The translations under genes and the position numbers were made by a program. A model generated the notes under the pieces. It saw nothing but the letters and a program-made list of their open reading frames with translations, was not told where the DNA came from and did no database searches. From a virus (lineage: Duplodnaviria; Caudoviricetes), in the IMG/VR virus record IMGVR_UViG_3300020576_006930, positions 75,133 through 139,132 of that record: a DNA stretch of 64,000 nucleotides. One strand, 5' to 3'. Shown here piece by piece: positions 4,583 through 38,353 of this stretch (position 1 is the first letter of the stretch; each line of letters opens with the position of its first letter).

Positions 4583-4590
4583 CCCCACAC

Positions 4591-4598
4591 TATTTATA
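4591..4598 (+). promoter_or_regulatory. Putative late promoter TATTTATA
   Basis: TATTTATA-CACAT-ATG(4604), with no room for a Shine-Dalgarno sequence. Confidence 0.55.
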
Positions 4599-4603
4599 CA
4601 CAT

Positions 4604-5173
4604 ATGAAAGCTGATGAACTTATTAAAGCCATACGAAAACTTGTCCGGGACGAAGTTAAAAAAGTTGTAACGGAAGAAGTGAATAAATCTATGACACGCC
4701 TCCTGGCCGAAGTCATTAACCGAAACCCAAATGAAGCTGCGGTAGCTATTAGAGAGGAAGCCCAGCCCCAGAAAACCTATACCAAGGACAATCGCTTAAA
4801 TGAAGCTTTAAATTCAACGGTTACCAATCTGCGGCAACGTGAACCGCGTGCTCCGCATACATCTCCTATGGTAAGTTTATCGGATATGTTTGATAAAATA
4901 GATGCTGGAGAGGATGTTATTACTCAACCAACCCCTTCGCCCATTGATACTTCCACGAAACTTGGAATGTTAAAGAGTATTGTTAGTAACGGACCGATTA
5001 ATCAACAAACTTCGGTCTTGGATCATGTCCACGCCACTCCGATTGCTAATGTGTTTAAAAAAGATTTTCGGTCTATGATGAAAAAAATCGACGAAAAACA
5101 GAAAAAAGGCGGAAGTTTCTTTGCGGGTTCTGTACCTCTGACTCCGACGATGGGTGGTTACGACTCCCAATAA
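4604..5173 (+). CDS. Hypothetical protein
   Basis: 189-aa ORF with an amphipathic N-terminal helix (IRKLVRDEVKKVVTEE). Confidence 0.7.
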   Translation: MKADELIKAIRKLVRDEVKKVVTEEVNKSMTRLLAEVINRNPNEAAVAIREEAQPQKTYTKDNRLNEALNSTVTNLRQREPRAPHTSPMVSLSDMFDKIDAGEDVITQPTPSPIDTSTKLGMLKSIVSNGPINQQTSVLDHVHATPIANVFKKDFRSMMKKIDEKQKKGGSFFAGSVPLTPTMGGYDSQ

Positions 5174-5176
5174 TCT

Positions 5177-5593
5177 ATGATTCCGGCCTCCAAAACTCCA
5201 ATTGGAATAACCATTCCAATAAGAAAGACCGCGTCCTCTTATTTTGATCAAACGTATGATACTTTGGGGCAGACTAGAGCAAATATCATAAATTTACTGA
5301 ACACACGTCCTGGCGAGCGTAGAATGCAACCGACGTTTGGGAGCCGGTTGTGGATCCTGGCGTTCGATCAGAACACGGAGATGTTGCCAGAAACCGCCCG
5401 GCGATTAATTGAAGAAGATATCTCAATGTGGGTTCCTGGAGTAAGCCTTAACTATACGGAGGTTGATCTTTTAAAAAGCGAACAAAGTCAAGACGACCGG
5501 GATATTTATAGATTACACATATCCGTTCAATTTACAATAAATTCAACGAAACAAACCGATACCATCGAATTGAATGTGGATAGGGTACAATAA
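5177..5593 (+). CDS. gp25: Baseplate wedge subunit, gp25/GPW family
   Basis: NIINLLNTRPGERRMQPTFGSRL signature. Confidence 0.9.
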   Translation: MIPASKTPIGITIPIRKTASSYFDQTYDTLGQTRANIINLLNTRPGERRMQPTFGSRLWILAFDQNTEMLPETARRLIEEDISMWVPGVSLNYTEVDLLKSEQSQDDRDIYRLHISVQFTINSTKQTDTIELNVDRVQ

Positions 5594-5598
5594 CTAAT

Positions 5599-7575
5599 AT
5601 GTCAGCCACCACCCCCAAGTCATTCCAACCCCAATCTAAAGATGTGCGGTATGTTAATCGTGACTTCCCTCAGTTGAAGGAAGCCCTTATCCAATTTGCC
5701 AAATCTTATTTTCCCAACACCTATAAGGACTTTTCCGATTCTTCTCCAGGAATGATGTTCATTGAACAAGCGGCTTATGTCGGAGATGTGTTATCCTATT
5801 ATACGGATTATATTTTCAAAGAATCCCTGATTGGTAATACCCAAGAACGCACTAATATCATCGCCTTGTCCCGGTACCTGGGTTATAAGGTTAAAGCTAG
5901 CCGGGGAGCAACGGCGGAGTTGGATTTATATCAAATAATACCCGCAGTTGAAATTAATGGTGAATATGTTCCGGATACCAGATTTGCTTTGGAAATCAAG
6001 GAGGGGGCACAGGTATCTAATAATGTTGGTTCTGCTTATTTGACAATGTTGCCAGTAAATTTCTCCGTTAATACTAACATTTCCCCGCGCACCGACTCCG
6101 TATACAGCCGCACCGACTCCGGTGTTCCTGAATATTTCCTCTGTAAAAAAAGCGTGCGCATTCGGGCTGGAAAAATTGTCGTTAAAAGTTTTTCGGTCAA
6201 TGACCCAAGTTCATTTTTGCGATTATATCTGGATGAAACGAATGTATTGGAAATCCTTGAAGTAAAAGACGCAGATAATAACAAATGGTATGAAGTTGAT
6301 TATTTAGCTCAGGAGGTAGTATTGGATTCCGTGCCCAACGACGAATCCTATGAGGGTTTTTACACAACTTACCGTGATCAGGTGCCTTATATTTTACAAT
6401 ATCTCCGAACCTCAAAACGATACACGACAAATGTGGATGAGAACAATCTCACCTATCTTGAATTCGGGGCTGGTCTGGAGGCGTTTTCCAATGAATTGGT
6501 GACGATGAATTCTCAATTGGTGGGCGTGGGTTTGAGTAATATTAATAAATTGAACATTCCCTACGATCCCTCAAACTTTTTAAAGAATGAAACCTACGGT
6601 TTAGCGCCTAACAATACCACCATCACCGTTAAATATTTGGTGGGCGGCGGTTATACGTCTAATGCTAGCGTCGATGAGATCATAAATATAGACTCTGTGG
6701 AATATGATAACTCAACTATTGGTTTGTTGCCGGATCAAATCACTAAAATTGATGATGCGAAGAGTTCGTTGCGGGTTACGAATCCCGTCCCGGCCACGGG
6801 AGGTAAGGATCCTGAAACAAATGACGAGATAAGACAAAACGCATTAGCCTTTTTCGCTGCTCAAAATCGATCAGTCACCAAAGATGATTACCTTGTGCGG
6901 GTTTATTCCATGCCGCCCAAATACGGTTCGCTTGCTAAAGTTCAAGTCGTTACCAATACCAGCCTAGACGTCAACGTCAATCAAATTTTAACCGGCACCA
7001 TCGATGCGAATAATATTGCGCAGGTGACCAACACCGACACCCAAACTTATTTTCGTAAATTGTCTTATGACCGGTCCAATCCATTCGCCATCAACCTATA
7101 CGTTTTATCTTACGATAATAACAAGAATTTAACGCCTGCGAATCAAGCACTGATCAATAATATGATCAACTATTTGAAGCAATTTCGCATGATTACGGAC
7201 GCGATAAATGTTGTGGATGGTTATGTGATAAACATTGGCCTTGAATTTACCATTTCCGTGTTCAAGGGTTACAATAAAAAAGAGGTTTTGTTGAATGCGA
7301 TCACCGCGGTTCAGTATTTCTTTAACATTGATAATTGGAACTTTTCCCAAACCATCAATCTAAGCCAACTGGAATTGGAAATTGCCAAAACCGATGGCGT
7401 TCAGTCGGTGCTTTCATTGGACATTTTCAATCTTAATGCCAACGATGGGAACTATTCCAAAGTTGAGTATGATATCAATAGTGCCACCCGCAATAAAATT
7501 GTATACCCATCCGTTGACCCGTCTGTTTTTGAAATAAAATATCCCGATCAAGATATTAAAGGGACGGTGGTGTAA
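5599..7575 (+). CDS. gp6: Baseplate wedge protein, T4 gp6-like
   Basis: RDFPQLKEALI..YKDFSDSSPGMMFIE..AYVGDVLSYY; GGKDPETNDEIRQNA..QNRSVTKDDY. Confidence 0.9.
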   Translation: MSATTPKSFQPQSKDVRYVNRDFPQLKEALIQFAKSYFPNTYKDFSDSSPGMMFIEQAAYVGDVLSYYTDYIFKESLIGNTQERTNIIALSRYLGYKVKASRGATAELDLYQIIPAVEINGEYVPDTRFALEIKEGAQVSNNVGSAYLTMLPVNFSVNTNISPRTDSVYSRTDSGVPEYFLCKKSVRIRAGKIVVKSFSVNDPSSFLRLYLDETNVLEILEVKDADNNKWYEVDYLAQEVVLDSVPNDESYEGFYTTYRDQVPYILQYLRTSKRYTTNVDENNLTYLEFGAGLEAFSNELVTMNSQLVGVGLSNINKLNIPYDPSNFLKNETYGLAPNNTTITVKYLVGGGYTSNASVDEIINIDSVEYDNSTIGLLPDQITKIDDAKSSLRVTNPVPATGGKDPETNDEIRQNALAFFAAQNRSVTKDDYLVRVYSMPPKYGSLAKVQVVTNTSLDVNVNQILTGTIDANNIAQVTNTDTQTYFRKLSYDRSNPFAINLYVLSYDNNKNLTPANQALINNMINYLKQFRMITDAINVVDGYVINIGLEFTISVFKGYNKKEVLLNAITAVQYFFNIDNWNFSQTINLSQLELEIAKTDGVQSVLSLDIFNLNANDGNYSKVEYDINSATRNKIVYPSVDPSVFEIKYPDQDIKGTVV

Positions 7576-7593
7576 ACCGATTTTAAGTAGATT

Positions 7594-9810
7594 ATGGCAC
7601 ACGTTTTCTATCCCAGAGTAGCGGATACTTACATCCGCGTAGTCAGCGGTTCTACCTTGAATGAATTTCACGTTGGGACTGGGGATAATTTTATTTTTTA
7701 TTTGACGGGTTCGAATTTTGGGACAGCCTCATTGACGGCTAGCTATGCCATCTCCTCTTCCTATGCGCCAGGTTCTCCAAGTGTCAGTGCTTCTTATGCG
7801 TTAACCGCTTCCTACGCATTAAACGGAGGTAGTGTTGGATCAACTGCTAGCGCAGTCACCATTGCGGATATCGGTAATCCCAACACCGAATACGGCGTCG
7901 TGTTCGACGCCGGTACGGGGATAAATTTAGCGAGAAATGGCGGCGGAACCAGTCTTTTTTCATTTAACCCATCCACCGGTTCATTTAAAGCCGTAGTTTT
8001 CGTTGGCGATTTAACAGGGACCGCCAACGCAGCATCAACGGCATCTTATGCGTTGACCGCATCTTATGCGTTAAATGGTGGTGGTTCCGGCACAACTTTA
8101 AGTACCAGCAGTCTATATCCGGTAACTTCTTCCTGGGCTAAGACTTCAAGCGCAGTTACCGTGGTGGATATAGGCAACCCCAACACTGAATACGGCGTCG
8201 TTTTCCTCAGCGATGGCAGTAACTTAGTGCGCAACGGCGGTGGGACCAGCCTATTTGCGTTTAATCCTTCCACCGGTTCATTTAAAGCCCTGGTTTTCAT
8301 TGGTGACTTAACTGGCTCAGCCGCTAATGCGATATCAGCTTCGTATGCTTTAAGCGCAAGCTATGCGCTTTCAGCTTCGTATGCTTTAAGCGCAAGCTAT
8401 GCGCGGACCGCTTCCTATGCGTTTACTTCCAGTTTTTCATTCACTTCCATTTCATCCGCCTTTGCGGACTATTCCATCCAATCTTTAACAGCGTCTTATG
8501 CGCTTAATGGTGGAGCCGGAGGAACTTCAAGTTTTAGTATTTCGTCCAGTTGGGCCAGTCAATCCGCTTTTGCGCCGGTTATTTTTAGCAATGTCCAAGT
8601 TATTAATGGCCAGTTATTGATACTGAGCACCGACACCAATACTTGGTATTCGCTCGGCGTCAGTGATGACGGGTCCGGTTCCTATACGACCAATCTAACC
8701 CCGACCACTAACACGGGTAGTTATTACGCCAGCGGCAGTTTTTATTACGCAACTATTACCAGTTCCGTGTCGGCTTCGTGGGCCACCGCTTCCATTAGCG
8801 CATCCTATGCTCGGACGGCGAGTTATGCGCTAAATGGGGGTTCAGGAGGCTCAACGATTTCGGCGTCCTGGGCTTCTAGTTCTTTAAGTTCCAGTTATGT
8901 TTTGCCCTATCAAAACTATACCGTCACGCCGACGGGTTCAGGAAATTGGATCACTTGTAGTTTTTCTCTGTCCAATCAACAAGTCAATCTGACTACGGCG
9001 TTGGTTTACAACTTTACTCATAGTAATTTACCAAGTTCCGGCCAAATTGCCGATCTAGCGGTTTTCATAAGTCATTCCGCTAATAATACCAGCTCCTTGA
9101 TCTTTCCTCCACAATGGAGAAATATTGGTTCGGGCTGGCCGACGACAATCGCCGCAAATACGGTCGGCGTGGTTTGGTTGCGGGCGATTGACACCAATGT
9201 TATTGTTGGAACTTACGGAGTATCCGGCAGCTCAGCTTCAGTAAACTCAGGTTCCGGAACTACTTTGACCACGGGAAGTTTATACTCAATTACGGCTTCT
9301 TGGGCAATCAATTCAAATAGTTCTAGTTATTTAAATGCCTATCAAAATTTAGTGACGGTGGCGACCAGTTCTTTGAACTGGATAACTTGTAGCTTTTTAT
9401 ATCCCAGTCAACAAATCAGTCTTTCCGTTGCGCAAGTTTATAATTTTACGGCTAGTGGGCTGTCTAATTCCGGACAAGTGTCTGATATTGCTTTGTTTAT
9501 TAATCATTCGGCCGCTGGGTCTAGTTCTTTAGCCTTCCCCAACAACTGGAAAAATATCGGCGGGGGCTGGCCAAATACGATTTCCTCTAATACCGTCGGG
9601 GTTTTATGGTTACGTTCGTTGGACGCAAACACCATTATCGGATCGTTTAATGTGTCGGGAAGCATAAGTACTTCCGCAAGTTATGCGTTAAGTGCGTCGT
9701 ATGCTCCCGGTGCGCCTAGTCTTTCCGCATCTTATGCGTTAACCTCCTCCTATGTATTGTCAACGAACACTTTGAAAAATTTTTCCGTGGCTATGGCGAT
9801 TGCTCTATGA
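7594..9810 (+). CDS. Tail-fibre-like protein with ASYA repeats and two internal duplicated domains
   Basis: Many [ST]ASYA repeats; duplicated DIGNPNTEYGVVF..NGGGTSLF.FNPSTGSFKA unit; duplicated ~110-aa NWITCSF..GWP domain; ends VAMAIAL. Confidence 0.75.
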   Translation: MAHVFYPRVADTYIRVVSGSTLNEFHVGTGDNFIFYLTGSNFGTASLTASYAISSSYAPGSPSVSASYALTASYALNGGSVGSTASAVTIADIGNPNTEYGVVFDAGTGINLARNGGGTSLFSFNPSTGSFKAVVFVGDLTGTANAASTASYALTASYALNGGGSGTTLSTSSLYPVTSSWAKTSSAVTVVDIGNPNTEYGVVFLSDGSNLVRNGGGTSLFAFNPSTGSFKALVFIGDLTGSAANAISASYALSASYALSASYALSASYARTASYAFTSSFSFTSISSAFADYSIQSLTASYALNGGAGGTSSFSISSSWASQSAFAPVIFSNVQVINGQLLILSTDTNTWYSLGVSDDGSGSYTTNLTPTTNTGSYYASGSFYYATITSSVSASWATASISASYARTASYALNGGSGGSTISASWASSSLSSSYVLPYQNYTVTPTGSGNWITCSFSLSNQQVNLTTALVYNFTHSNLPSSGQIADLAVFISHSANNTSSLIFPPQWRNIGSGWPTTIAANTVGVVWLRAIDTNVIVGTYGVSGSSASVNSGSGTTLTTGSLYSITASWAINSNSSSYLNAYQNLVTVATSSLNWITCSFLYPSQQISLSVAQVYNFTASGLSNSGQVSDIALFINHSAAGSSSLAFPNNWKNIGGGWPNTISSNTVGVLWLRSLDANTIIGSFNVSGSISTSASYALSASYAPGAPSLSASYALTSSYVLSTNTLKNFSVAMAIAL
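8335..8404 (+). repeat. 36-nt tandem duplication encoding SASYALSASYAL
   Basis: tcagcttcgtatgctttaagcgcaagctatgcgc(tt) occurs at 8335 and 8371. Confidence 0.9.
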
Positions 9811-9853
9811 CATTCTTCATATTTATATCCCAATCATTCTATTTATCTGTACA

Positions 9854-10420
9854 ATGAAACAACTCATTCCTAACTATACCTTTAATGCGGCTACCAATCA
9901 AGTGACGCTAACGGACTACCCAACCTTGGATTTGGAACGTTTATTGTTGATTACCAACGTCACCGATAACATATTTTTATATAATTTTGCCGACCCAACC
10001 ATTGGGGCAACGGTTGCGGGTAATACCATCACTTTAGCCTATAACACCACGGCAATGAGTGATACGGACAAACTTCAGATTTTTTACGATGTGGCAAGTA
10101 ATGCGCCGGCGTCGGAAGAAAGTTTACAATTATTGAAGGAGCAGGTTATTTTAACCCGCAAACTACTCAAAACCACCGAATGTTTGGCTACGGTCGATCT
10201 TAACCAGAGGATGAAGGTAGACCTGGACGGTTACCAAGGCGCAACTTTAACCGCGACGGGTTTAACGACTCGGGTTTTGGATTCTGGCGGCTCGACGATG
10301 TATACTATCAATGGATCGACTTTGACTCTATTGTCAGCTATTCCAGAGTTATGGCGAACGATTGATCAAGCACGCATTTCTTACAATTCTGGTATCCGGG
10401 CAAATTTAACGTTTTCATAA
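9854..10420 (+). CDS. Putative virion/tail-fibre connector protein
   Basis: ATG at 9854 (MKQLIPNYTFNAATNQVTL..LLLITNVTDNIFLYNFADP) follows TATTTAT at 9840; lies between fibre genes. Confidence 0.65.
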   Translation: MKQLIPNYTFNAATNQVTLTDYPTLDLERLLLITNVTDNIFLYNFADPTIGATVAGNTITLAYNTTAMSDTDKLQIFYDVASNAPASEESLQLLKEQVILTRKLLKTTECLATVDLNQRMKVDLDGYQGATLTATGLTTRVLDSGGSTMYTINGSTLTLLSAIPELWRTIDQARISYNSGIRANLTFS

Positions 10421-12850: not shown

Positions 12851-14065
12851 ATGAATATGACACGCAAACTTTTAATTGGTTTTTTAATCTGGAGTATGAC
12901 TCTGACAATGTTCGGCGCAACCGTATCTCTGATCTACGATTCTGTCACGGGAACAATATTGAGTCGCAAAGAGTTGATTTTTCCGTCCAATGCGACTTTT
13001 AACGCGCAGGTATCCATTTATAGCCAAACCAACTCCATTTTAAATGTGGGCATCCTGAACCTAACTAATAGTCTAATCGTTAATGGTTCAGGTGTACTAT
13101 CCCAACTTGCAGTCGGGGCAACCAACGCTTCCGGCGGAACCAATATTCTTGAGCTTTTGTATAATGGGGTGAAGTTGGGGCGTTTCGGAACAAATGGGAT
13201 TTGGTATGGTAATTTCGCCGGGGCGACCAATCTGCCCATAAGCGCATTTTGGGGCTCGGGTGGCACGAACACGGCAAATACAAACGGTACATTAGGACAA
13301 GCTCTGTTTAGTTCCGGCAATGGCGGTGTATATTTCGGAGCAAGTCAGACACCAGGTGTTTTGTTTGGTGACCGGGCCGTCTGGAATGGGACGGCGTGGG
13401 AAGACGACTCACGATGGACGCATTTTGAGAATGAGTTTTTTCTTGCGCAATCCGTTGGCTACCCAATGGCAGTTTTCGGTACCGGAACTGGGGCTGGGGT
13501 AAGCAGCGTAGATACGACGAGCAATCGCCTCGGCGTGGTTACTCTGTCGCCCGGAACAACTGCCAATGGCTATTATGGTGAGTGTATTGGCAGCGCAGCC
13601 ATTCGAGCGTTTACCTGGGGACAAGGTGAAAAGATGATCACCGATCTGACTTGTTATGTGGACACCTTATCCGACGATACAGAGAATTATTGTTTTCAAT
13701 TTGGTTATAGCGATTCACAAACCACAAATAATCCAGCGGATACCTTGCTTGTACAATACTCTAACAATACCAACGCGGGGAAATGGGAAATTATGTCACG
13801 CAATTCTACAGGCAGCACAAATGTTTACGATATCGGCACGAATGTCGTCGCTAGACGTTGGTATGACATTCGTCTTGTTACCGACACGGATGGCACAAGT
13901 TCTGCTTACCTGGACGGTGTTCTGGTTAAGTCTGGTATTCCCGCCACGTCAGGTCAAGTCATTCCGATGTTTAGGGTAAATAAAGCCGCGGGGCTACTAG
14001 ATCGGCCGATCCGGTTGGATTATTATCGTTGGTCTATCAAGCGGGCGACTACCAAATATCAATGA
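12851..14065 (+). CDS. Signal-peptide-bearing fibre-like protein with C-terminal lectin/ConA-like domain
   Basis: MTRKLLIGFLIWSMTLTMFG-A signal peptide; GTLGQALFSSGNGGVYF fibre-like motif; WYDIRL..SAYLDGVLV ConA-like motif. Confidence 0.65.
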   Translation: MNMTRKLLIGFLIWSMTLTMFGATVSLIYDSVTGTILSRKELIFPSNATFNAQVSIYSQTNSILNVGILNLTNSLIVNGSGVLSQLAVGATNASGGTNILELLYNGVKLGRFGTNGIWYGNFAGATNLPISAFWGSGGTNTANTNGTLGQALFSSGNGGVYFGASQTPGVLFGDRAVWNGTAWEDDSRWTHFENEFFLAQSVGYPMAVFGTGTGAGVSSVDTTSNRLGVVTLSPGTTANGYYGECIGSAAIRAFTWGQGEKMITDLTCYVDTLSDDTENYCFQFGYSDSQTTNNPADTLLVQYSNNTNAGKWEIMSRNSTGSTNVYDIGTNVVARRWYDIRLVTDTDGTSSAYLDGVLVKSGIPATSGQVIPMFRVNKAAGLLDRPIRLDYYRWSIKRATTKYQ

Positions 14066-17000
14066 GATACGCAATTTTTATATTTTTATTGTTATGCTTG
14101 GTGTTAAATTCTCCAGCGGAAAACCGCGTCCCCAATTCTGGATTTGAATTAGGACCTTCGCGTGGTTGGTTGTCGTGGGAAAATTTAAATAAACCGACGT
14201 TTAATGGCAACGGATCGCTCTACACATTCATGAACACGAATGCGAATTCCGGCGGTTATTCCTTTCGATCCACTGGAAGGTTGCGTTCTCGCTTGTTTTG
14301 GTTAACCAATGGAAATTATGTTCTGACTTTTTCTGCCAAAGCAACTTCCGCCCATACTCATAAAGCGGGAATTTTAAACGAAACCGCAGGTGTAACTACC
14401 GTTGATCCGACAGATACGATTTCAGTCACTACCTCTTGGGCACGGTATACAAATACTTTCACGGCAACCAGTGATGGTCTTTATTTTGTAAAATTTATTG
14501 ATGTTAACGCGTCGGTTTTTTATGTGGATGATGTTCAGGTTGAGTCCGGCGTAACGGCGCATGACTATGCGCCTTCAACTCCAGTTGAACTTGGTATTAC
14601 GATTCCCCAGACAAATTCTATGTTTTTTGTTGGTCAAACGGCGCAGTTCACACTTAACTTTTGGAACACAGGCCCGCCGACCAATGCCACGGCGCGGTAT
14701 GATGTTTATGATTTCTGGAACTCAAATGTGTTGAGCGGAGTTACCTCCGTCGCCCTGGCGGCAGCAACGAACACCACCACTAATATAAATATCCCCAATC
14801 TAACCGGCTGGTTTCGGGTAATGACTAGACTTGCGGATTATCCCGATTCGTGGGACGAAGCCACGTTAGTCGCATATCCGTTTGCGTCGAATATTACCTA
14901 CAACGCAGCAACGGACTGGCTCGGCGGGCATCCACAAGATTCCACAAACAATATTAATCGTGAAATGATGGCAGGGCGACACATCGGGAGAACTCTCGGG
15001 CCTGGATGGCAAGCCAATCGCTGGGGATTTGTGTCGGGTATTGAATATAATCAAGGGGTATTTGACTGGAACGATTACGCCATCACAAATTTGACGCAGC
15101 AAGGAATGTATGTGGTTGCGACCCTGACTCCGGAAGACGGAACGTGGCCGCATTACTTTACGAATAGCGAGGCGGTGAATCTGGGGCTGTGGAGTAACTA
15201 CTGCTACAAGCTGGTTTACCGCTACAATGTCGAACTTGGACTCAGCAACAGCATCATTTATGAGGTTGGACCAAATGAACCACTACAATCCGGTCCGACT
15301 ACACCCATCAATGTCCGGGACGCCGTGACCTACGCTAATGTTCTGACCTACGGCGTTTGGGGCGCAACCAATGCGCATGGGAGCGCAAAACTAATCGGTA
15401 TTGCCGGTGCGGCTGGAGCGGGTGAATGGGCTTGGTGGGTCTACACGAACTTACCAGCCGGAACAAAGGCAGCACTAACGGCGGTTTCCACCCACGTCTA
15501 CCCACAGGATTCAGTGGGGGTTGCTTTAAACCCAAACGGAAGTTTTAACGCAGTAAGCTTCGTGAATAATTCTTACGGTTATGCGACCAATTTTGCGGGG
15601 ATCAAGCCTGTCTGGAATACGGAATCCGGAGTAGGAACTGTTTCAGGCTTCAAAGGTCAAAATACAATGTGGACGAATTATTATTCATTGTTTAAAACCG
15701 ATTACACTTATGAGAGCCAACGAATGGAACGGCAGAGCCGAAGTTTAACGGCGGTAATTACCAGCACTGAAGAAGCTCTCCGTGGTCTTGGCGCTGGTTT
15801 GGATAAGTTTTTATATTATGATTGTCGGAGATTTAACGATGCTTCATTTCAAACCGCTCAACCATACGGTCAAGATTATATGCAAGTTGATCACCCGCAT
15901 CTAGTCTCCTTGTCCATCGCACAATATATGGTAACACACGGCTTTGGTCGGGTTGTCAATAGTGGAGAAACTAAAGTTGAAGCCTATTCTTTTACTAATT
16001 CCAGTGGCAATGCGGTAATAGCGGCGTGGAACTACGACCGCACCAACCGAACGGCGACGTTAACCAATGCGTTTTTTGCCGCTTACGACGTAATGGGAAA
16101 TCGGATTTCCACTAACTCAGCAAACATCGCACTAGACCGATTTCCAACCTACTTTGTGAGCAGCACGCTTTCGTTAGTTCAGATGAGCAATATGTTTTGT
16201 ACAGCAACGTTTGTTAATGTTGCCGATACGATTCCACCTCAGGTTTCCTTCTCCGTTGCGCCGACTGGAGCGTGGAACGGTGATTCCGCCGGAACATTGG
16301 TTAAATGGGACGCGTTGGATAACCGGTGGTCGAATTATCCTGAGGGCTACGATTACACTAATATTCTCAGCAAATATTCACTAGACGGAGCTGCCTATAC
16401 CACTTATTCCCAGAGCAATTACGTTTGGTTATCTGGGCTGTCAGCTGGCAACCACACAATTAAAGTTACAGTTAAAGATAAAAATAACAATGCCGACGAA
16501 TGGACATATGATTTTTTGGCTGGCGAAGACATCCCGGTTATTACCATCACCTCACCGACTAACAATCAACCTTCCGTCGCGACATCAATAACGGTTACCG
16601 GAACAAGTTCTGATAATGATACGGTGAGTGGGGTTTCTTTAACTAACATATCAACTGGAGTCGGCGCAACCGTAACCGGAACCACTTCTTGGAGCGCAAC
16701 AATGACGTTGCGGCAAGGAACAAATACATTACAAGCCGTAGTCACAGATAATTTAAGTAATAAAGCAACTAATTCAATTGATGTCATAGCGGTCAACCTG
16801 ACAAACCGGAACACCGCCGTTAAATCTCCCTATTTAGGTGTACAGTATTTACAAATTCAGAATCCCGCTGCCCAGCATACTTTGATGTCTAATGTGCCCG
16901 CCACCTATGTCAATATGCCTATCACGTATGCGATCCTGACTGGCGGCGCATACGGGGGCCACGCAAACGGAACAAATTATTACGATGCGACGTATGCCGC

Positions 17001-18021
17001 CAATACAAACGCGGGGTGGAATATCATTTTACAATTTTCTGATATGCCCACGAATCTTATTGCCACATATGTTCCTTATTTAGTTGCTAGGTACCCTTCG
17101 TGGATGGTGATCCCGTTGAATGAGAATGACAGCGCAGCGGAGTCGTCGGCGATCATCAAGTTGTTCCGGACGGCGTTACCGACGCAACGGCTCGGAGGTC
17201 CAGCTCTTTATCATATCGTCAACCCACCATATATTGATGCTTTGATCGCGAGCAACGCATTCCAATTACTTGACAGCTTCGTCGCACACGATTACCTTGC
17301 GGTGCCGTTGAACGGGCTCTGCACGGCTGGCTGGTGGACGAATAGCTACTATCACCCGAGCAACACGCCGACGGGCTACCATCCGGAGTGGTCGGTTGGG
17401 AATCTGCCTAGCCGTTTAACGTGGATGAATAGCTACACGAACCAATTGCGGACGGATTATACCGATACCCCGAAGGCAATTGTTTCAGAATATGGCATTT
17501 ATCAAAATGATGTTCCTGATGGCGAATACGCAGGACGTATATTCCGTTCTATGCATATACCAGTTTTCGTCACGGCGAACTTCGCCACCACTAATCAGTG
17601 TCCATATAATAATGCTCTATACGATGGAGTTGGGGTTGGTTATTTCACCGAAAGTCAACAGGAATTTCTTTCCAGTGTAGAAATTACCAGTTCTTGTGCG
17701 GTTGCTTCTCCCGTCGTCGTGGCAAGTGGAGGCGCAGGTTTATATAGCACAAGTAGTAGTACAATTAACGTATCAGGAACTTCAGATAATCCTGACGCGG
17801 TGATCTCGTGGAGTAATTCCCGAGGCGGCGCCGGATCGGCAACGGGCAATCTGACGTGGAGTAAGACGGGGATAACTCTTTATAGCGGTGGTAATACCTT
17901 AACTTTTACCGCAACATCAGGAGAGGATAGCACGTCTACTACATTAACGGTTACGTATACTCCGCCGCCTCCTGGTGGTTCGACGAACAATGTTTGGATA
18001 TTAAATCTTTACAACCACTGA
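14062..18021 (+). CDS. Exported multidomain glycoside hydrolase: signal peptide, CBM4/9-like, clan GH-A domain, Ig-like domains, second GH-A-like domain, Ig-like domain
   Basis: ATG 14062 overlaps the upstream TGA (ATGA). MRYAIFIFLLLCLVLNSPA signal peptide; NSGFE..FYVDDVQVE CBM; NEP and WNTESG catalytic-Glu motifs; a second LNE..HDY..VSEYG set. Confidence 0.7.
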   Translation: MRYAIFIFLLLCLVLNSPAENRVPNSGFELGPSRGWLSWENLNKPTFNGNGSLYTFMNTNANSGGYSFRSTGRLRSRLFWLTNGNYVLTFSAKATSAHTHKAGILNETAGVTTVDPTDTISVTTSWARYTNTFTATSDGLYFVKFIDVNASVFYVDDVQVESGVTAHDYAPSTPVELGITIPQTNSMFFVGQTAQFTLNFWNTGPPTNATARYDVYDFWNSNVLSGVTSVALAAATNTTTNINIPNLTGWFRVMTRLADYPDSWDEATLVAYPFASNITYNAATDWLGGHPQDSTNNINREMMAGRHIGRTLGPGWQANRWGFVSGIEYNQGVFDWNDYAITNLTQQGMYVVATLTPEDGTWPHYFTNSEAVNLGLWSNYCYKLVYRYNVELGLSNSIIYEVGPNEPLQSGPTTPINVRDAVTYANVLTYGVWGATNAHGSAKLIGIAGAAGAGEWAWWVYTNLPAGTKAALTAVSTHVYPQDSVGVALNPNGSFNAVSFVNNSYGYATNFAGIKPVWNTESGVGTVSGFKGQNTMWTNYYSLFKTDYTYESQRMERQSRSLTAVITSTEEALRGLGAGLDKFLYYDCRRFNDASFQTAQPYGQDYMQVDHPHLVSLSIAQYMVTHGFGRVVNSGETKVEAYSFTNSSGNAVIAAWNYDRTNRTATLTNAFFAAYDVMGNRISTNSANIALDRFPTYFVSSTLSLVQMSNMFCTATFVNVADTIPPQVSFSVAPTGAWNGDSAGTLVKWDALDNRWSNYPEGYDYTNILSKYSLDGAAYTTYSQSNYVWLSGLSAGNHTIKVTVKDKNNNADEWTYDFLAGEDIPVITITSPTNNQPSVATSITVTGTSSDNDTVSGVSLTNISTGVGATVTGTTSWSATMTLRQGTNTLQAVVTDNLSNKATNSIDVIAVNLTNRNTAVKSPYLGVQYLQIQNPAAQHTLMSNVPATYVNMPITYAILTGGAYGGHANGTNYYDATYAANTNAGWNIILQFSDMPTNLIATYVPYLVARYPSWMVIPLNENDSAAESSAIIKLFRTALPTQRLGGPALYHIVNPPYIDALIASNAFQLLDSFVAHDYLAVPLNGLCTAGWWTNSYYHPSNTPTGYHPEWSVGNLPSRLTWMNSYTNQLRTDYTDTPKAIVSEYGIYQNDVPDGEYAGRIFRSMHIPVFVTANFATTNQCPYNNALYDGVGVGYFTESQQEFLSSVEITSSCAVASPVVVASGGAGLYSTSSSTINVSGTSDNPDAVISWSNSRGGAGSATGNLTWSKTGITLYSGGNTLTFTATSGEDSTSTTLTVTYTPPPPGGSTNNVWILNLYNH

Positions 18022-18040
18022 TTGATAGTTATGGCGTGAT

Positions 18041-18448
18041 ATGAAAAAGGTAAAAATAATCTGGTTTTGTCTTGGGTTTATTATAACCGGTCTATTATGG
18101 GCGGCGCCTTCCAAACAATTGTTGGGGCCAACCGCAAGTACAACCGCTAACGCATTGGCCCGATGGACCGATACCACGGCTTCCCGCTTGACTAATTCCG
18201 TGGTGTTCGTGGATATCAATGGCAATCTCAGCGGAGTTAATACCCAGAATTTGAACCAAGCTAATATTAGTACAGGTATCACCACCAATGGTCTGATTTT
18301 TTTAAGCCGCAGTAGTTTACCTAGTGCCAGTGATGTAGGTGGAACTATCGGTTCCATCACGAATTATCTTATGACGGTAACTAACGGAATAACGACGGTG
18401 TTTTGGTCCGACGGCACCACTTTATACAGCAAACAAATCGCTCCTTAA
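18041..18448 (+). CDS. Exported stand-alone copy of the shared 111-aa C-terminal domain
   Basis: MKKVKIIWFCLGFIITGLLWA signal peptide followed by KQLLGP...WSDGTTLYSKQIAP. Confidence 0.8.
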   Translation: MKKVKIIWFCLGFIITGLLWAAPSKQLLGPTASTTANALARWTDTTASRLTNSVVFVDINGNLSGVNTQNLNQANISTGITTNGLIFLSRSSLPSASDVGGTIGSITNYLMTVTNGITTVFWSDGTTLYSKQIAP

Positions 18449-18454
18449 AACGAT

Positions 18455-19084
18455 ATGAAAAAAATACTAACATTCTTGCTGGCGATTCCATGGTTGGCAT
18501 CGGCTCAAATCGGGATCACCGGCAACGCGGCGTTTGTTGGCGCGGCGGGCTTCTCGGTTGCGAGCACGGGCGGAGGCAGTTGCCCCGGCACGCCTACGGT
18601 GGCCCAAAATGTTTACAACGCAAATCAAGCATGTGGGCTTACGGATGGAATTGGACATTACCGAACGGGTTTAATCGGATACACCAACTCGGCGACGATC
18701 AACATTTGCGGGGCTGACTTTTTAATGACCTATGTGGCGGGTGACATTTCAGGGCTGACGTTTAAGGCTTATGTTTACTCGCTATCTGGAAACAACCTCG
18801 ACACGTTGCTAGCAACATCCTCAACCACGATTTCTGGTAATAATAGCTGGTCCCATACCACCAATCATTTCGATTTTTCAACGGCGGCTACCGTTAGTCC
18901 GGGAACGCGCGTAGCAGTTTTTGTGCAACCAACGCAGGCGGGGGATAATTCCAACTACGCTAGAATTGACGTGCAAGACACAAATGTTTTGACCCCCGGA
19001 AACTTAGCGACTTGGAATAGCACGGGCGGAATTGAATTGAACGCAACCACGAATGACCCATGGATAAGCCTTTATTTTTATTGA
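18455..19084 (+). CDS. Small exported beta-sandwich protein
   Basis: MKKILTFLLAIPWLASA-Q signal peptide; beta-rich domain resembling 20870..21370. Confidence 0.7.
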   Translation: MKKILTFLLAIPWLASAQIGITGNAAFVGAAGFSVASTGGGSCPGTPTVAQNVYNANQACGLTDGIGHYRTGLIGYTNSATINICGADFLMTYVAGDISGLTFKAYVYSLSGNNLDTLLATSSTTISGNNSWSHTTNHFDFSTAATVSPGTRVAVFVQPTQAGDNSNYARIDVQDTNVLTPGNLATWNSTGGIELNATTNDPWISLYFY

Positions 19085-20868
19085 TCGGTTTGCTGCTGGC
19101 ATTGCAGGCGCAAGCGGCGACCAACATTGCAACGAGTGTGTCTCGCTCTGATGTTAACGCGGCAATGTCGGCCTGTTCCAACGGGGATACCCTTTCGATT
19201 CCCGCCGGGTCCGCAGTGTGGACTTCGGCGCTTACGGTGACGAAATCAATTTCAATCATCGGAGCTGGCACAAATGCAACCTTCATCACCAACGGGCAAG
19301 CTAGCGGGGTCTGCACCATTTTTGCGTTTGAACCCAGCGCGAACGCCCCGCAGCGGCTTAGTTCAATGGCTTTCATCCAGACCAACGGGTTTGCTCAGCA
19401 ATATGTAATTACTGTCAAGGGGGCTATTAGCTCGTTTCGGCTCGACCGCTGTTTTTTTACTCAAGGCAAGACTATCATCCAAACGGCACTCGCGGCGGGA
19501 AGCGGGCCGGTTTTCGGCGTGATTGACCATAACCATTTCTATAATTGTTCACTGGAAATACAGTGCTTCAATTTCCGAACCGGAGACACGTTGGACGGCG
19601 ACCAAATGTGGACAGCCTGGCGGGCCGCTCCGAGCAGCTATATCGGAACGACTAACAGCATGGTGGTAGAAAATAATGCGTTCCATGTGGACAACTCTTT
19701 GGCGGGTGACAATGACGAGCCAATGAGCGGAGGGCGTGGGGCAATTTACGCTTGGCGATTCAACACCCATCGAAGCGACAACACCTCGCGGGCCTATGTG
19801 GGTGTTGATATGCATGGTGCGTTTGCGGGGGTTCGTGGGGGAACGCTGTATGAGATTTACTCCAACAATTTTTACATTGCCACCACATACCGACTCACCA
19901 AACAGCGAGGCGGAAGCTGGATATCCTACGGCAACACCTATTGGAACACGAACACGGTGAGGGACTTCATAAACTTGGGTGCGGAAACGGGCACCGAGCA
20001 AACGGCGAATGCGGCGACCGGCGACGGTTACACCAATTCTTTTTATTGGGGGAACATCTCAAACGGTTCGGAAAATACAACCGTTGTTAACGACAGTCTG
20101 CTGCCCGCAGTTGAGGGGACGCATTACTTTTTGCACGCCCCGGCTTCCACCAACAATTTTTACCCCTACACCCCGCTTGTCTATCCGCATCCACTCGTGA
20201 CGGCGCAGGATGGCGGCGGAGGCGGCGACGTAACCGCCCCGACCTGCGTGATCACATCGCCGGCCTCGGTATCGAGCGGGAGCAGCGGAAGCTACAGCAC
20301 CAGCAGCAGCACGATCACGGTGAGCGGAACGAGCGACGATGCGACGGCGACGGTGACGTGGAGCAATTCACGCGGGGGAGCGGGTACGGCGACGGGAAGC
20401 ACAAGCTGGTCCGCACCAGACATCGCTCTTTATTATGGTGGTAATACACTAACTATATCAGCGACGGATTTGAATTCCAATATAACCTCCACCGTCCTGT
20501 ATGTCATTTATATTAGTCCTTTTTCCACTGCGAAACAAATCACCGGTCCCTTAGCTTATTCCCGGGCGCAATCCGCGGCGACCTGGGCCGATACCAATGC
20601 TTATAAAGTACTGGATTCACCCGTTTTAATTGATAATATTGGGAATATCACTGGCGTAAATACTCAACAGATGGTCCAAGCAAATGTCACGACTTTATAT
20701 ACCACCAATGGCTTCCTCTTACAACAGAAAGCAAGCCCACCGGAAGTGTCAACCATCGGCGGTTCAGTTGGTAGTATAACCAATGGTTTTTTATTGAATT
20801 ATAATGGCAAAATTTATATGTATTGGAGTGACGGTAATACATTATATTCCAAACAATTAATCCCCTAA
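19060..20868 (+). CDS. Exported right-handed beta-helix (pectate-lyase-like) protein with Ig-like domain and shared C-terminal domain
   Basis: LLIGLLLALQAQA signal peptide; GDTLSIPAG, VIDHNHF, VVENNAF, EIYSNNF beta-helix rungs; shared C-terminal domain at 20533-20868. Confidence 0.75.
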   Translation: MDKPLFLLIGLLLALQAQAATNIATSVSRSDVNAAMSACSNGDTLSIPAGSAVWTSALTVTKSISIIGAGTNATFITNGQASGVCTIFAFEPSANAPQRLSSMAFIQTNGFAQQYVITVKGAISSFRLDRCFFTQGKTIIQTALAAGSGPVFGVIDHNHFYNCSLEIQCFNFRTGDTLDGDQMWTAWRAAPSSYIGTTNSMVVENNAFHVDNSLAGDNDEPMSGGRGAIYAWRFNTHRSDNTSRAYVGVDMHGAFAGVRGGTLYEIYSNNFYIATTYRLTKQRGGSWISYGNTYWNTNTVRDFINLGAETGTEQTANAATGDGYTNSFYWGNISNGSENTTVVNDSLLPAVEGTHYFLHAPASTNNFYPYTPLVYPHPLVTAQDGGGGGDVTAPTCVITSPASVSSGSSGSYSTSSSTITVSGTSDDATATVTWSNSRGGAGTATGSTSWSAPDIALYYGGNTLTISATDLNSNITSTVLYVIYISPFSTAKQITGPLAYSRAQSAATWADTNAYKVLDSPVLIDNIGNITGVNTQQMVQANVTTLYTTNGFLLQQKASPPEVSTIGGSVGSITNGFLLNYNGKIYMYWSDGNTLYSKQLIP

Positions 20869-20869
20869 T

Positions 20870-21370
20870 ATGCTAAGTCCTATTTTCATTATGGGTCAGT
20901 TCCTTCAGCCCTTATATGGGTTTTCTGTTGCCGCCGCCGGCGATATCGTTTGGATTTCGCAAACCACCGACGCGGATTGGTGGCAAGGGACCATTCACTC
21001 TCAAGGGATTAAAAACTCATCGGCCCGCACCATTTCAAAAGTTAGAATCAAACTGGAAAATGCCGCCGGGGATACCACGGGCACCGTCGGCATTTACTCG
21101 CTTCAAAATGCCGGCGGAACCCAAACCGGAACAAGCTCGCAAGCCGTAACCCTAACCGGCGCAACCGCCGCATGGTATGAGTTCACGTGGGCGTCTAATC
21201 CGACAACGACGGCAGGCGACTTTTTTATCTGCCTATCCTGCGGGAGCGGGAACATTCGTGTGCGAACCAGCACGGTTTCGACGAGTTATGAAAACTCGTC
21301 TTACGACTACTGGAACGATGCGACCACGCACGCGGCAGACATGGTGTTTGAAATTTATACAATCCCTTGA
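20870..21370 (+). CDS. Small beta-sandwich protein, probable paralog of 18455..19084
   Basis: TISKVRIKL..VGIYS..WYEFTW..DMVFEIY parallels INICGADF..AYVYS..HFDFS..WISLYFY; signal peptide unclear. Confidence 0.6.
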   Translation: MLSPIFIMGQFLQPLYGFSVAAAGDIVWISQTTDADWWQGTIHSQGIKNSSARTISKVRIKLENAAGDTTGTVGIYSLQNAGGTQTGTSSQAVTLTGATAAWYEFTWASNPTTTAGDFFICLSCGSGNIRVRTSTVSTSYENSSYDYWNDATTHAADMVFEIYTIP

Positions 21371-23424
21371 AGCGTTTTCTTTCATTTATTTTTGCGGTTG
21401 GTTTGGCCCTGCCAGCTTTTTCGGCTACCTACTATATTGATTACGGGGCGGCGAATGATTCGGCCAATGGTCTGACCACCTCCACCCCCTGGAAGCGATG
21501 CCCGGGCATGGTGGGCTTCGCTGGCACTTACTCGCATAGCGCAGGCGACGTGTTCACATTCAAGGGTGGGGTGACGTGGCCAAAGACGGTCTTCCCTTTG
21601 ACCATCGGTTACAGCGGCGCCGCTGGCAACGTGGACACCTATACTGTGGATCAAACTTGGTATTCAGGAGGGGCTTACGACTATCCGGTTTTCGACGGCG
21701 AGACGACGCTCGGAGGTGCGATTATTTCAATTCCGGCAGGTGGCCGGGATTACATAAAGATCAATGGGTTGAAGATGCAGAATTGCGACAACGGCACGAA
21801 CTCCGTAGGCGCAATTATGATTGACATGTATGATGGGCGAGATATTGAAATCAGCTATTGCTGGCTCGCCCCAAACTCCATCGAGGCTTTTGATTACCTA
21901 GCCAACTCCAAAAGCGCGGCCAACATTTCAATCCACCATTGCACGATCCGAAACGCGATTCGAGGGGTGGTTTATGCCACGACCGGATTCAGCGTGACGA
22001 ACGTTTCAGTTTACAACAACGATTGGCAAGGGCCGGGGACGATGTACATGGGCGGCTACCATGCAGACGGCTTAATGGTGGGCGACCCAATCGCCGGCGT
22101 GGCCAATTCGATTTACAACTTGCGCGTTTACAACAACAAATTCTACGGGAATTGGCAGATTGCAACAGCCATCATTTACAGCAATGGGGGCGTGAACGGC
22201 GCTGAGATTTACAACAACGTCTTTTCGTTGGAAAACACAAACGGATACGCGACCAATCAGCCAATTTTCGGAGCGTTCTGCCAGTTTTATCGAAACGACA
22301 CCAATCTTCGTTTCTACAACAACACCTTCTCCAGTGACGCCATGCACGGATGGAACGGCAGTGACCCGTTAGGGGCAAAGGCGGCGATTGCTCAATACAC
22401 TCCCATCAGCGGCGCAGTGTTGACCGCCTACAACAATCTTTTTTCCAAATGTGCAATCGGGATAAATGTTGATGCGACGGTAACGGTTGTTTCAGATTAC
22501 AACCTGCACGAGCCAGACGCATCGCATTGGGGTTATCTGATCTGGGGGGCGACCGCGTATAGTTCGCTTGCCGCCGCGCAAGGGGCAGGCTATGAGCTTC
22601 ATTCGCCGGCACTGGCCTACGCCAGCTTTGTAACCGTTTCAAATGGCATCACGGGGGGTTCTGATTTCCGCCTTCAAACCAATTCTCCCGCCATCGGCGC
22701 CGGCACGAACCTAAGCGCCTTATTTACGGGCGACATTTTAGGTACCAATCGCGGAAGCTCGTGGACGCTTGGCGCGTATCAATCCGCGTCAAGCGGCGCC
22801 GGGGGCGGCGACGTTACCACCCCGACCGTTACCATTACCAGTCCCACTCATAACCAAGTTATTAGCGCAAACTCCATTGCGGTTAGCGGAACCAGTTCGG
22901 ACGATGTCGCCGTCAGTTCGGTCGCCTTGACTAATACCTCAATGAATGCCGGCGCCACGGTCACCGGAACAACCAGTTGGACGGCGACGATTCCCCTTCG
23001 CACCGGGACCAACCTTTTAAGCGCCGTGGCCACGGATAGCAGTGGTAATAAAGCTACTAATACGATCACGGTCATTTACTCCGTGGCCAAACAGATTATC
23101 GGCCCAGTCGGATTAACAACGGCCAGGGCGCTTGCACGTTGGTTGGACACTTCCGCTTATAAATTAGCAAATAGCTCAGTGGTTATTGATGATTTAGGTA
23201 ATGTCTCAGGTGTTAGTAACCAAACCATAATGAGACTGGACGTTGGTATAGTGTGTGTCTCCAACAACTTGATTTTTATCCAGCAAAACACTGCTCCAAT
23301 TGCTGGTGATATTGGGGGATCGGTTGGAAGTGTAACGAACTGCGTCATACGTAATGTCAATGGTATTCTAAATGGTTATTATTCAGACGGTGTAACTCTT
23401 TGGACAAAACAATTAGCCCCCTAA
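21367..23424 (+). CDS. Exported right-handed beta-helix protein with Ig-like domain and shared C-terminal domain
   Basis: TTG start overlapping the upstream stop; MKRFLSFIFAVGLALPAFS-A signal peptide; TYYID..DSANG..PWK, YNN rungs, DFRLQTNSPAIGAG..LGAY; shared C-terminal domain at 23089-23424. Confidence 0.78.
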   Translation: MKRFLSFIFAVGLALPAFSATYYIDYGAANDSANGLTTSTPWKRCPGMVGFAGTYSHSAGDVFTFKGGVTWPKTVFPLTIGYSGAAGNVDTYTVDQTWYSGGAYDYPVFDGETTLGGAIISIPAGGRDYIKINGLKMQNCDNGTNSVGAIMIDMYDGRDIEISYCWLAPNSIEAFDYLANSKSAANISIHHCTIRNAIRGVVYATTGFSVTNVSVYNNDWQGPGTMYMGGYHADGLMVGDPIAGVANSIYNLRVYNNKFYGNWQIATAIIYSNGGVNGAEIYNNVFSLENTNGYATNQPIFGAFCQFYRNDTNLRFYNNTFSSDAMHGWNGSDPLGAKAAIAQYTPISGAVLTAYNNLFSKCAIGINVDATVTVVSDYNLHEPDASHWGYLIWGATAYSSLAAAQGAGYELHSPALAYASFVTVSNGITGGSDFRLQTNSPAIGAGTNLSALFTGDILGTNRGSSWTLGAYQSASSGAGGGDVTTPTVTITSPTHNQVISANSIAVSGTSSDDVAVSSVALTNTSMNAGATVTGTTSWTATIPLRTGTNLLSAVATDSSGNKATNTITVIYSVAKQIIGPVGLTTARALARWLDTSAYKLANSSVVIDDLGNVSGVSNQTIMRLDVGIVCVSNNLIFIQQNTAPIAGDIGGSVGSVTNCVIRNVNGILNGYYSDGVTLWTKQLAP

Positions 23425-23497
23425 GCTATCTTTTTAATAAAATATTGATCGGTTTTCATACCGTTTACCATATTTATAATCAAAGGAATCTTATTAT

Positions 23498-23722
23498 ATG
23501 GACTGGTTAAAAGGTATTTTAGAAGACAATAGTGGCGGCGCATCCTCCACACGCATATTAATGTTGGTCTGGGGCGTCGGAGTTTTCGTCGTTTGGGCTT
23601 ATATTTCCCTCCATACGGGAGTAATGGTCGTTTTACCAGAAACCGTAATCACCGTGCTCCTTGGTACTTCCGCAATGAAAGTTGTTCAGCGGTTTGGGGA
23701 AAAGCCTGAAGATAAGAAATAA
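23498..23722 (+). CDS. Small two-TM membrane protein, holin candidate
   Basis: 74 aa, two hydrophobic helices, charged C-terminus (FGEKPEDKK); own TATTTATA (23471) and AAGGA. Confidence 0.5.
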   Translation: MDWLKGILEDNSGGASSTRILMLVWGVGVFVVWAYISLHTGVMVVLPETVITVLLGTSAMKVVQRFGEKPEDKK

Positions 23723-23803
23723 TTCCGGCGTTTAATACACGCTTGAATTTTTTGTTACGGTAGAGTTAAATAGGCTAGTGGTGTATATTTATTCTCAAGA
23801 CTC

Positions 23804-38024: not shown

Positions 38025-38104
38025 GAAATTGTAGAAAAAATGTTTAAACGAAAAAGGTATGAATTGCCCTGAGAGTTATATTTATATAGTAAGGATAATG
38101 ATAT

Positions 38105-38353
38105 ATGACACCAACCGCACGACCATCAACTGAAAATAATCTAGCTCAACGTTATAACTCCCAGAAAGCTGGCGGAGCCTACGACGCTAAAACTATTGGT
38201 AAGTGGGGGCTGCATGCGCCAGTGGAAAATTCTCTCCAGTCACGCTTTTGGACTCCTCTTGGATTCCGGGTCAAAATGAATTCTAGCGAATTTAATAATC
38301 CCGGAGGATCTATGTATTTACAAGGTCACACGACCAAAAAATACAAGCCGTAA
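38105..38353 (+). CDS. Small basic hypothetical protein
   Basis: Own TATTTATA (38079) and AAGGA upstream. Confidence 0.6.
   Translation: MTPTARPSTENNLAQRYNSQKAGGAYDAKTIGKWGLHAPVENSLQSRFWTPLGFRVKMNSSEFNNPGGSMYLQGHTTKKYKP

Follow-up and report, generated by a model that had tools for sequence, protein, structure and literature searches.

What use could a tailed phage have for a run of proteins that look destined for export, encoded in the midst of its tail genes? The question is raised by seven genes at positions 12851-23424 of a 64,000-nucleotide stretch of viral DNA (hereafter, the window), which corresponds to bases 75133-139132 of the linear 139-kb IMG/VR virus record IMGVR_UViG_3300020576_006930 (CheckV completeness 39%). 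We put at about one half the probability that this cassette encodes late, Sec-exported and partly trimeric enzymes and binders of glycans, which act on the host envelope or on exopolysaccharide (EPS) and are not canonical parts of the virion. The original prediction made from this DNA included, among its options, a late exported set directed at capsule or EPS, and this is also the reading that we favour.

Signal peptides in the tail module

Seven co-oriented open reading frames (ORFs), coding for the proteins P0001 to P0007, fill the interval amid baseplate and fibre genes; they are separated by 1-19 nt where they do not overlap. For the second gene, the correct start codon is the ATG at 14062, within an ATGA overlap with the preceding stop, and the last gene starts at a TTG inside a TTGA overlap. 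Signal peptides (SPs) were called with a home-made rule on their n-, h- and c-regions, and not with a trained predictor. By this rule, six of the seven cassette proteins show the Sec-type anatomy of a usually charged n-region, a hydrophobic core and small residues at -3 and -1. No SP is called among nine flanking structural genes (7594, 9857, 10424, 23498, 23804, 26022, 26475, 31387 and 32039, a set that includes the small 23498 gene). Of the 119 + strand ORFs of at least 100 aa in the full 139-kb contig, 15 pass the rule, and a run of six in seven consecutive genes appeared in only 0.08% of 200,000 label shuffles (permutation p ~8e-4). The observation that had first drawn attention to this locus, namely seven tightly coupled genes of which six have SPs while the flanking structural genes have none, is thereby confirmed. 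The net charge of the n-region is +1 to +3 in five of the SPs and 0 in that of P0005, and the SP of P0002 is a strong one (h-region hydrophobicity 3.65). The homologues examined for P0001, P0002, P0003 and P0007 bear SPs as well. That the cassette carries genuine-looking Sec-type SPs, putative export signals, is well supported.

The same contig codes for further small SP-bearing proteins, at 68022-68733 (L015, L016), 37654-38232 and 41572-42171, one of them with a fibronectin type III domain (E 3.5e-10). Putative exported products are therefore not limited to the cassette.

Domains of the cassette proteins

All-against-all BLAST showed the cassette proteins to be interrelated and detected no similarity between them and the flanking structural genes. 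Immunoglobulin-like (Ig) domains of the Big_7/Glucodextran_B type recur in P0002, P0005 and P0007, the match of P0005 being weak, and a PHROG search found no family for any of the seven proteins. P0002 had been proposed to combine a carbohydrate-binding module (CBM) with a clan GH-A glycoside hydrolase (GH). We recover this assignment by language-model features only: its N-terminal 800 residues reach an Atlas feature score of 0.94 to CBM_4_9+GH10/GH39-like clusters of Verrucomicrobiota, Planctomycetota and Lentisphaerota, and the putative glycanase has no Pfam GH or CBM match and no PDB sequence match. Its Big_7/Glucodextran_B domain spans residues 836-920. The two beta-helices of the original prediction are likewise supported. 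The Atlas structure model of P0005 aligns to beta-helix clusters with TM scores of 0.65-0.82, and many homologues of P0007 carry PF13229; P0007 itself matches choice_anch_Q at 21.3 bits, below the cut-off of 25, in addition to Glucodextran_B (E 2.3e-8). Neither beta-helix has a direct Pfam match above cut-off, PDB sequence searches with P0002, P0005 and P0007 gave nothing usable, and residues 1-400 of P0005 have no relative in a scan of the viral_contigs collection.

The remaining members are less readily described. Residues 151-404 of P0001 share 77% identity with the C-terminal end of P0221; this fibre-like protein of 613 aa, encoded by another phage-like contig (L011), begins with an SP/lipobox-like sequence. 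P0001, a candidate for the lectin-like domain of the original prediction, has no Pfam, PHROG or NCBIfam match, and its single-sequence AlphaFold2 (AF2) model is uninformative on the fold (predicted local distance difference test, pLDDT, 30). The compact build of P0003, in which an SP leads directly into a fibre-like module, is found again in homologues of 135-167 aa (P0128, P0130, P0133, P0140 and a gene at ~9923-10339 of the related contig L005), and a single-protein scan of viral_contigs with P0003 returned no relatives. P0004 has no family match in Pfam, PHROG or NCBIfam, no relative in viral_contigs and no similarity to P0006, whose own homologue search returned only itself.

A C-terminal module predicted to form trimers

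P0003, P0005 and P0007 end in a common module of 112 aa, which aligns at 45% identity without indels and contains the fibre motif quoted in the original prediction. An exhaustive HMMER search with P0003 splits it into a fibre repeat and a terminal domain. The repeat, residues 23-80, occurs in up to 16 copies in large fibre-like proteins, and an 18-member family of fibre-repeat proteins with a conserved 'MHRKH...' N-terminus has no SPs. The last 60 residues form a highly conserved and unnamed domain, present solely at the extreme C-terminus in ~40 clusters. Under a strict version of our rule, SPs occur in 27 of the 37 clusters bearing this C-terminal domain (several more by eye) versus 7 of 58 other fibre-repeat proteins. 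The C-terminal trimer domain is in this sense a mark of putatively exported fibre-like proteins, of phages and bacteria alike.

In three copies, the module is predicted to assemble into an intertwined homotrimer, with an ipSAE of 0.91 versus 0.00 for the best control, a pLDDT of 91 and at least 98% contact agreement between runs. Of 30 solved homo-pairs, 20 attained the mark used, as did 1 of 23 single chains, a calibration that is only approximate here, our own alignment and three copies having been used. As a monomer, the AF2 model is poor for residues 1-60 and attains a pLDDT of 64-80 for residues 61-112. Foldseek against PDB and BFVD retrieved nothing at E <=1e-3 for the module, and the best Z of a wide VIA-align search, 4.0, is within noise.

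Several known C-terminal elements were compared with this domain. The sorting domain of the type IX secretion system (T9SS; Por_Secre_tail/TIGR04183) was considered because the nearest isolate to the portal protein of this phage infects Flavobacterium; it was rejected because neither Pfam (E to 10) nor NCBIfam (E to 1) gave a match and because the lone bacterial genome with the domain holds it in single copy. The Peptidase_S74 chaperone has no Pfam match at E to 10 in the three C-terminal modules. The domain is indeed rare in bacteria, since a pattern scan of 185,579 species genomes found it at one locus. It occurs in 1 of 401 sampled Verrucomicrobiota genomes and in 1 of the 45 of that family, once in the genome concerned, and this rarity and single copy exclude a host-wide verrucomicrobial sorting tag. 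More probably, the domain is a self-contained trimerising or binding knob.

Bacterial relatives in polysaccharide loci

The lone bacterial case belongs to a metagenome-assembled genome of Verrucomicrobiota (contig CAZZFF010000033.1, positions 6351-8177 of locus L009). It has an SP, N-terminal repeats of the 'FTYQGRL' type, an SGNH/GDSL esterase and the C-terminal domain, and it sits within a polysaccharide locus of glycosyltransferases and O-acetyltransferases. It is a candidate for a cell-owned, fibre-like, EPS-modifying enzyme.

The beta-helix of P0007 leads to a much larger bacterial family. Its residues 1-470 have 279 homologues, many of them on bacterial contigs of megabase size, and in nearly all of the 120 listed among the 279 an SP is followed by the mature N-terminus TYYIDY. 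The cleavage site of P0007 aligns with this SP/TYYIDY junction, and its SP is, on this alignment, putatively inherited from a secreted bacterial family. The closest homologue, P0008 (51% identity), has a polysaccharide flippase, a pyruvyl transferase and an acyl-AMP ligase as neighbours, which is the make-up of a bacterial EPS locus. P0152 adjoins glycosyltransferases, and a polysaccharide locus contains or borders the gene of each of the bacterial relatives P0008, P0152 and P0219.

This beta-helix family also reaches phages. P0015, 45% identical to P0007, is an SP-bearing beta-helix without an anchor in a 44-kb phage-like contig (L002) that also encodes a 381-aa tail fibre with a T7-type N-terminal anchor and no SP. 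There, the anchored fibre and the predicted exported, anchor-less beta-helix are therefore separate proteins. Neither P0003 nor the beta-helix of P0007 has a match in 50,697 GenBank phage records.

Related cassettes in other phages

Comparable fibre or enzyme genes with SPs recur in at least five further virus-like contigs, and in three cases lysis-like genes lie next to them. One such contig is L005, a relative of the window phage whose structural genes are 36-86% identical to their counterparts; it was found, like L006, only by searching viral_contigs with an alignment of three sequences. Its cassette has three genes, coding for an SP with a mini-fibre, an SP with CBM-glycanase and trimer module, and an SP with Ig and second catalytic domain. 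The homologue of P0002 is thus split in L005, and where P0002 has a linker the second gene starts with an SP of its own, which argues that export is under selection. The L005 cassette does not follow the baseplate genes and lies between homologues of window genes 34251 and 35271. It is preceded by a leucine-rich repeat protein (8449-9924, BspA-type, 491 aa, no SP) and by a homologue (6731-8443) of the SP-less fibre-like gene that starts at 7594 in the window. In L005 this fibre gene stands a short way upstream of the cassette, at another place in the genome, and the comparison suggests that it co-travels with the cassette and that the cassette is a putative movable gene block. Several SP-less fibre candidates of the window are conserved with L005.

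In L011, the SP/lipobox fibre that ends in the C-terminal domain of P0001 is accompanied by an SP-bearing homologue of P0002, and these genes are followed by two small membrane proteins and a lipoprotein. L006 carries an SP-bearing fibre with the trimer-module C-terminal domain and, at 4509-7895, a protein of 1128 aa with an SP, a Peptidase_S8 subtilase (E 3e-42), a beta-helix and Ig domains, directly before lysis-like genes that comprise a membrane protein and a related lipoprotein. The similarity of this lipoprotein to Cor (E 0.0019) extends over the lipoprotein signal only, and we do not count it as evidence. In the window, L006 and L011, the SP-bearing fibre or enzyme genes directly precede holin-like or lipoprotein genes. 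A further relative, P0156, is located in a PM2-like element. The original prediction had called for a search of related phages for clustered SP genes, and L005, L006 and L011 all carry related SP-bearing genes within phage-like gene sets. It had also foreseen that the homologues might turn out to lie only in ordinary bacterial chromosomal loci; they are found on phage contigs as well.

The phage, its likely host and the surroundings of the cassette

The + strand of the window carries nearly all genes. Downstream of the baseplate genes, the PHROG matches also include a primase, a fused SbcCD and the large terminase, and the closest isolates to the portal protein are Flavobacterium phage immuto and Microcystis phage Mel-JY01, each at 52% identity. 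Because of these PHROG-matched structural genes and portal relatives, the contig can be assigned to a large, uncultured T4-like myovirus. SbcD and SbcC are normally encoded by two genes; here a single ORF of 1066 aa (window 39775-42975) has an SbcD-like N-terminal and an SbcC-like C-terminal part. HNH/homing-endonuclease-like genes, recognised by PHROG, interrupt the structural and packaging region at 33197-34231 and 47132-48007 of the window. Upstream of the window, contig positions 464-5410 hold ~13 tandem paralogous small genes of 100-130 aa that start with variants of MNGKLLW/MYGKLLWH.

At contig positions 59884-60732, 14.4 kb before the window, a protein of 282 aa (L012) has a prepilin-type N-terminal methylation motif (Pfam N_methyl, E 2e-8). 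The motif is typical of the numerous pseudopilin-like proteins of the Planctomycetota-Verrucomicrobiota-Chlamydiota (PVC) bacteria and so hints at the host; a connection of this protein to secretion across the outer membrane is possible. Given this prepilin-motif gene, the taxa of the enzyme relatives and the lone bacterial genome with the C-terminal domain, the host is probably a PVC-type bacterium, with Verrucomicrobiota the likeliest. Signal peptides are not general among verrucomicrobial phages: none is predicted in P8625, the first of them to be cultured.

Directly 3' of the cassette lies the gene of a small protein, P0220, which may be holin-like to judge from its anatomy. P0220 has no PHROG match, and no endolysin was identified nearby. 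A promoter-like site (23453-23480) and a terminator-like hairpin (23727-23743) bracket this gene. In the scan for such elements, match counts were near the shuffled expectation, and nothing convincing was found within the cassette.

Table 1. Positions of the cassette genes and of neighbouring features in the window.
Feature	Length (aa)	Position	Strand	Description
Baseplate wedge genes		5177-7575		gp25-like and gp6/J-like; PHROG matches
SP-less fibre-like structural gene	738	7594-9810	+	47.5% identical to L005 6731-8443
P0001	404	12851-14065	+	SP, ~125 aa without recognised similarity, 254-aa C-terminal domain
P0002	1319	14062-18021	+	SP, CBM_4_9-like and clan GH-A-like putative glycanase, Big_7 Ig, second catalytic-like domain, C-terminal Ig
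P0003	135	18041-18448	+	SP directly followed by the 112-aa trimer module (fibre repeat and C-terminal domain)
P0004	209	18455-19084	+	SP and a domain without assigned fold
P0005	602	19060-20868	+	SP, right-handed beta-helix, Ig domain, C-terminal trimer module (491-602)
P0006	166	20870-21370	+	Sole cassette member without clear SP; orphan
P0007	685	21367-23424	+	SP, beta-helix ('SP then TYYIDY' family), Big_7/Glucodextran_B Ig, C-terminal trimer module (574-685)
P0220	74	23498-23722	+	Putatively holin-like; two hydrophobic spans and a charged C-terminal tail
Terminase, portal, prohead protease, major capsid genes		48.5-64 kb		PHROG matches

A putative exported kit and its alternatives

How would such a cassette work? 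As we read it, the block would supply a pair of beta-helix enzymes, a single large CBM-glycanase, a mini-fibre that stands alone, and two or three small proteins without assigned fold. The enzyme parts would derive from secreted polysaccharide enzymes of PVC-type bacteria, probably Verrucomicrobiota, the closest case being P0008 in its EPS locus, and the phage would have fused them to Ig domains and to a C-terminal trimerising module made of shaft and knob. The cassette would be transcribed along with the tail genes, as suggested by the fact that the genes are tightly coupled, lie on one strand and show no convincing terminator. The pre-proteins would then cross the inner membrane through Sec and be cleaved by signal peptidase I, a step suggested by n-, h- and c-regions whose anatomy matches that of the bacterial homologues. 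Folding and trimerisation would take place in the periplasm; a trimeric fibrous assembly is predicted for the 112-aa module. Before or at lysis, the products may cut or bind the capsule, EPS or lipopolysaccharide glycans of the host, so that progeny are freed, receptors on the dying cell and its debris are destroyed or masked, or superinfection is hindered. The proteins are unlikely to be canonical virion fibres because they have no N-terminal virion anchor, the enzyme or the fibre repeat beginning right after the SP, and because SP-less fibre candidates are encoded alongside.

A number of observations weigh against this scheme. P0006 has no clear SP, only a weak and uncharged hydrophobic start. 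In a diderm host, Sec alone reaches the periplasm only. P0002 is a putative GH by its language-model features (score 0.94), and both export and glycan activity are read from sequence. The cassette occupies the host-range part of the tail module and, together with the linkage to an SP-less fibre gene in L005, this position would also fit parts of the virion. P0207, a protein of 1245 aa with SP, fibre repeats and C-terminal domain, is encoded in the phage contig L008 where a tail fibre is expected, after the tape-measure gene and four small genes; no other fibre was recognised there.

Could the products then be true virion fibres or tailspikes, exported to the periplasm, folded and trimerised there, and docked to particles built in the cytoplasm when holin and endolysin bring about lysis? 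Late docking is physically possible, since fibreless T4 particles acquire their fibres in cell extracts, and the place of the block in the tail module, its linkage to the SP-less fibre gene in two phages, the fibre repeats with their predicted trimeric knob, the adjacent lysis-like genes and P0207 at the fibre position all agree with it. Yet we found no docking domain, the SP gives way to the enzyme at once, and the proteins resemble none of the flanking structural genes. The SP-less fibre candidates, several of them conserved with L005, make such a role unnecessary, and L002 has a canonical anchored fibre besides its SP-bearing enzyme. Joining of the virion at lysis, another option of the original prediction, thus found no direct support, and we judge it unlikely. 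Its more general form, in which this phage and scattered uncultured phages of PVC-type and other soil or freshwater bacteria make host-recognition parts as Sec substrates that join the particles only at lysis, with the knob as folding or docking unit, is just as doubtful; if it were true, this extracytoplasmic maturation of fibres would be an exception to cytoplasm-only virion assembly and would change the textbook rule. That rule, namely that tailed-phage particles assemble in the cytoplasm, counts in turn for ordinary cytoplasm-assembled fibres or spikes whose hydrophobic N-termini are relics of gene capture or serve some role other than export, and the phage evidently acquired the beta-helix from bacteria with the SP included. 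A relic would decay, however, whereas the SP properties persist across diverged homologues despite sequence variation, the split gene of L005 has gained an SP of its own, and the presence of SPs follows the C-terminal domain across dozens of clusters. Moreover, a functional SP on an abundant late protein would send it to Sec regardless of its role, and we consider relic signals less likely still.

Lower again in our ranking stand auxiliary metabolic genes, namely secreted glycanases with no part in adsorption or release, by which polysaccharide from the environment would nourish the infected cell or its kin. SP-bearing carbohydrate-active enzymes (CAZymes) of phages are known, and P0002 resembles the CBM_4_9+GH10/GH39-like enzymes of polysaccharide-degrading PVC bacteria. 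But the enzymes are fused here to fibre repeats and a trimer knob that are otherwise seen on phage or surface-fibre-like proteins, the closest homologue of the P0007 beta-helix lies in a locus for the synthesis, not the degradation, of EPS, and the block is coupled inside the tail module beside lysis-like genes. It is very improbable, finally, that bacterial DNA was joined into the phage contig during assembly, a possibility that the original prediction itself had raised. The GC content is slightly raised at 18-22 kb (0.50-0.515 versus 0.37-0.48 in much of the window) and the enzyme domains are of bacterial type, but the genes run through start/stop overlaps and short gaps with no break in strand or frame use at either border, a second contig, of 185 kb, is on record with the same proteins, and in L005, L006 and L011, which are independent contigs, related SP genes are found in phage-like surroundings.

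The exported, glycan-directed cassette that we favour thus keeps one part of the exported system first proposed and loses another: the SPs look real and their context is that of a phage, whereas nothing was found in support of the seven genes as one system. If the products are exported, phages of little-studied bacteria would carry a kit that remodels the sugar coat of the host from the envelope side, late in infection, with a bearing on progeny release, receptor destruction, superinfection exclusion and the microbial turnover of EPS in nature. The block shows phage chimeras built from secreted enzymes of the host and fibre modules.

Comparison with known systems

Several systems already in print share features with the cassette, and to call it undescribed, as the original prediction did, is too strong. 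WceF of Pantoea stewartii (PMC7949094) is a Tat-exported, trimeric, right-handed beta-helix EPS hydrolase that resembles a tailspike and is encoded in an EPS biosynthesis cluster. As the cassette proteins would be, it is an exported trimeric beta-helix glycanase with intertwined C-terminal regions, and it acts on the EPS of its own cell. It differs in its Tat signal, its chromosomal location and its P22-like N-terminal head domain, whereas the cassette proteins have Sec-type signals, are encoded by a phage, lack the head domain and end in a different C-terminal module; the likeness seen is one of build. The mosaic adhesive trimer (MAT) fibres of Bdellovibrio bacteriovorus (PMC10769870) are SP-bearing, phage-fibre-like trimers that bind surface glycans. 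SPs are common to them and the cassette, as would be the fibre-like trimers, the variable, beta-rich C-terminal tips and a place outside the cytoplasm. However, the SP of MAT fibres leads straight into a conserved domain of 130 aa, many of these fibres end in Peptidase_S74, and they are owned by the cell and serve predation; the cassette proteins have no such N-terminal domain and no S74 match, and lie in a phage tail module.

The depolymerases carried by virions as tailspikes or fibres, such as P22 gp9 and the tailspike proteins of CBA120 (reviewed in PMC6966330), are also beta-helix enzymes with trimerising C-terminal parts, encoded in tail modules and directed at host surface glycans. Unlike the cassette proteins, they have an N-terminal particle-binding domain and no SP, and they assemble in the cytoplasm. 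SPs as such are not new in phages, as 5% of prophage CAZymes carry them (PMC13507307) and Porphyromonas phages have SP-bearing genes without assigned function (PMC10367356). The products of these genes are, like those of the cassette, predicted Sec substrates, read as envelope modifiers or secreted CAZymes. Neither report names fibre-like or tail-module proteins or a shared C-terminal trimer domain, and the cassette differs from both in that its six SP genes are clustered in the tail module of a T4-like phage.

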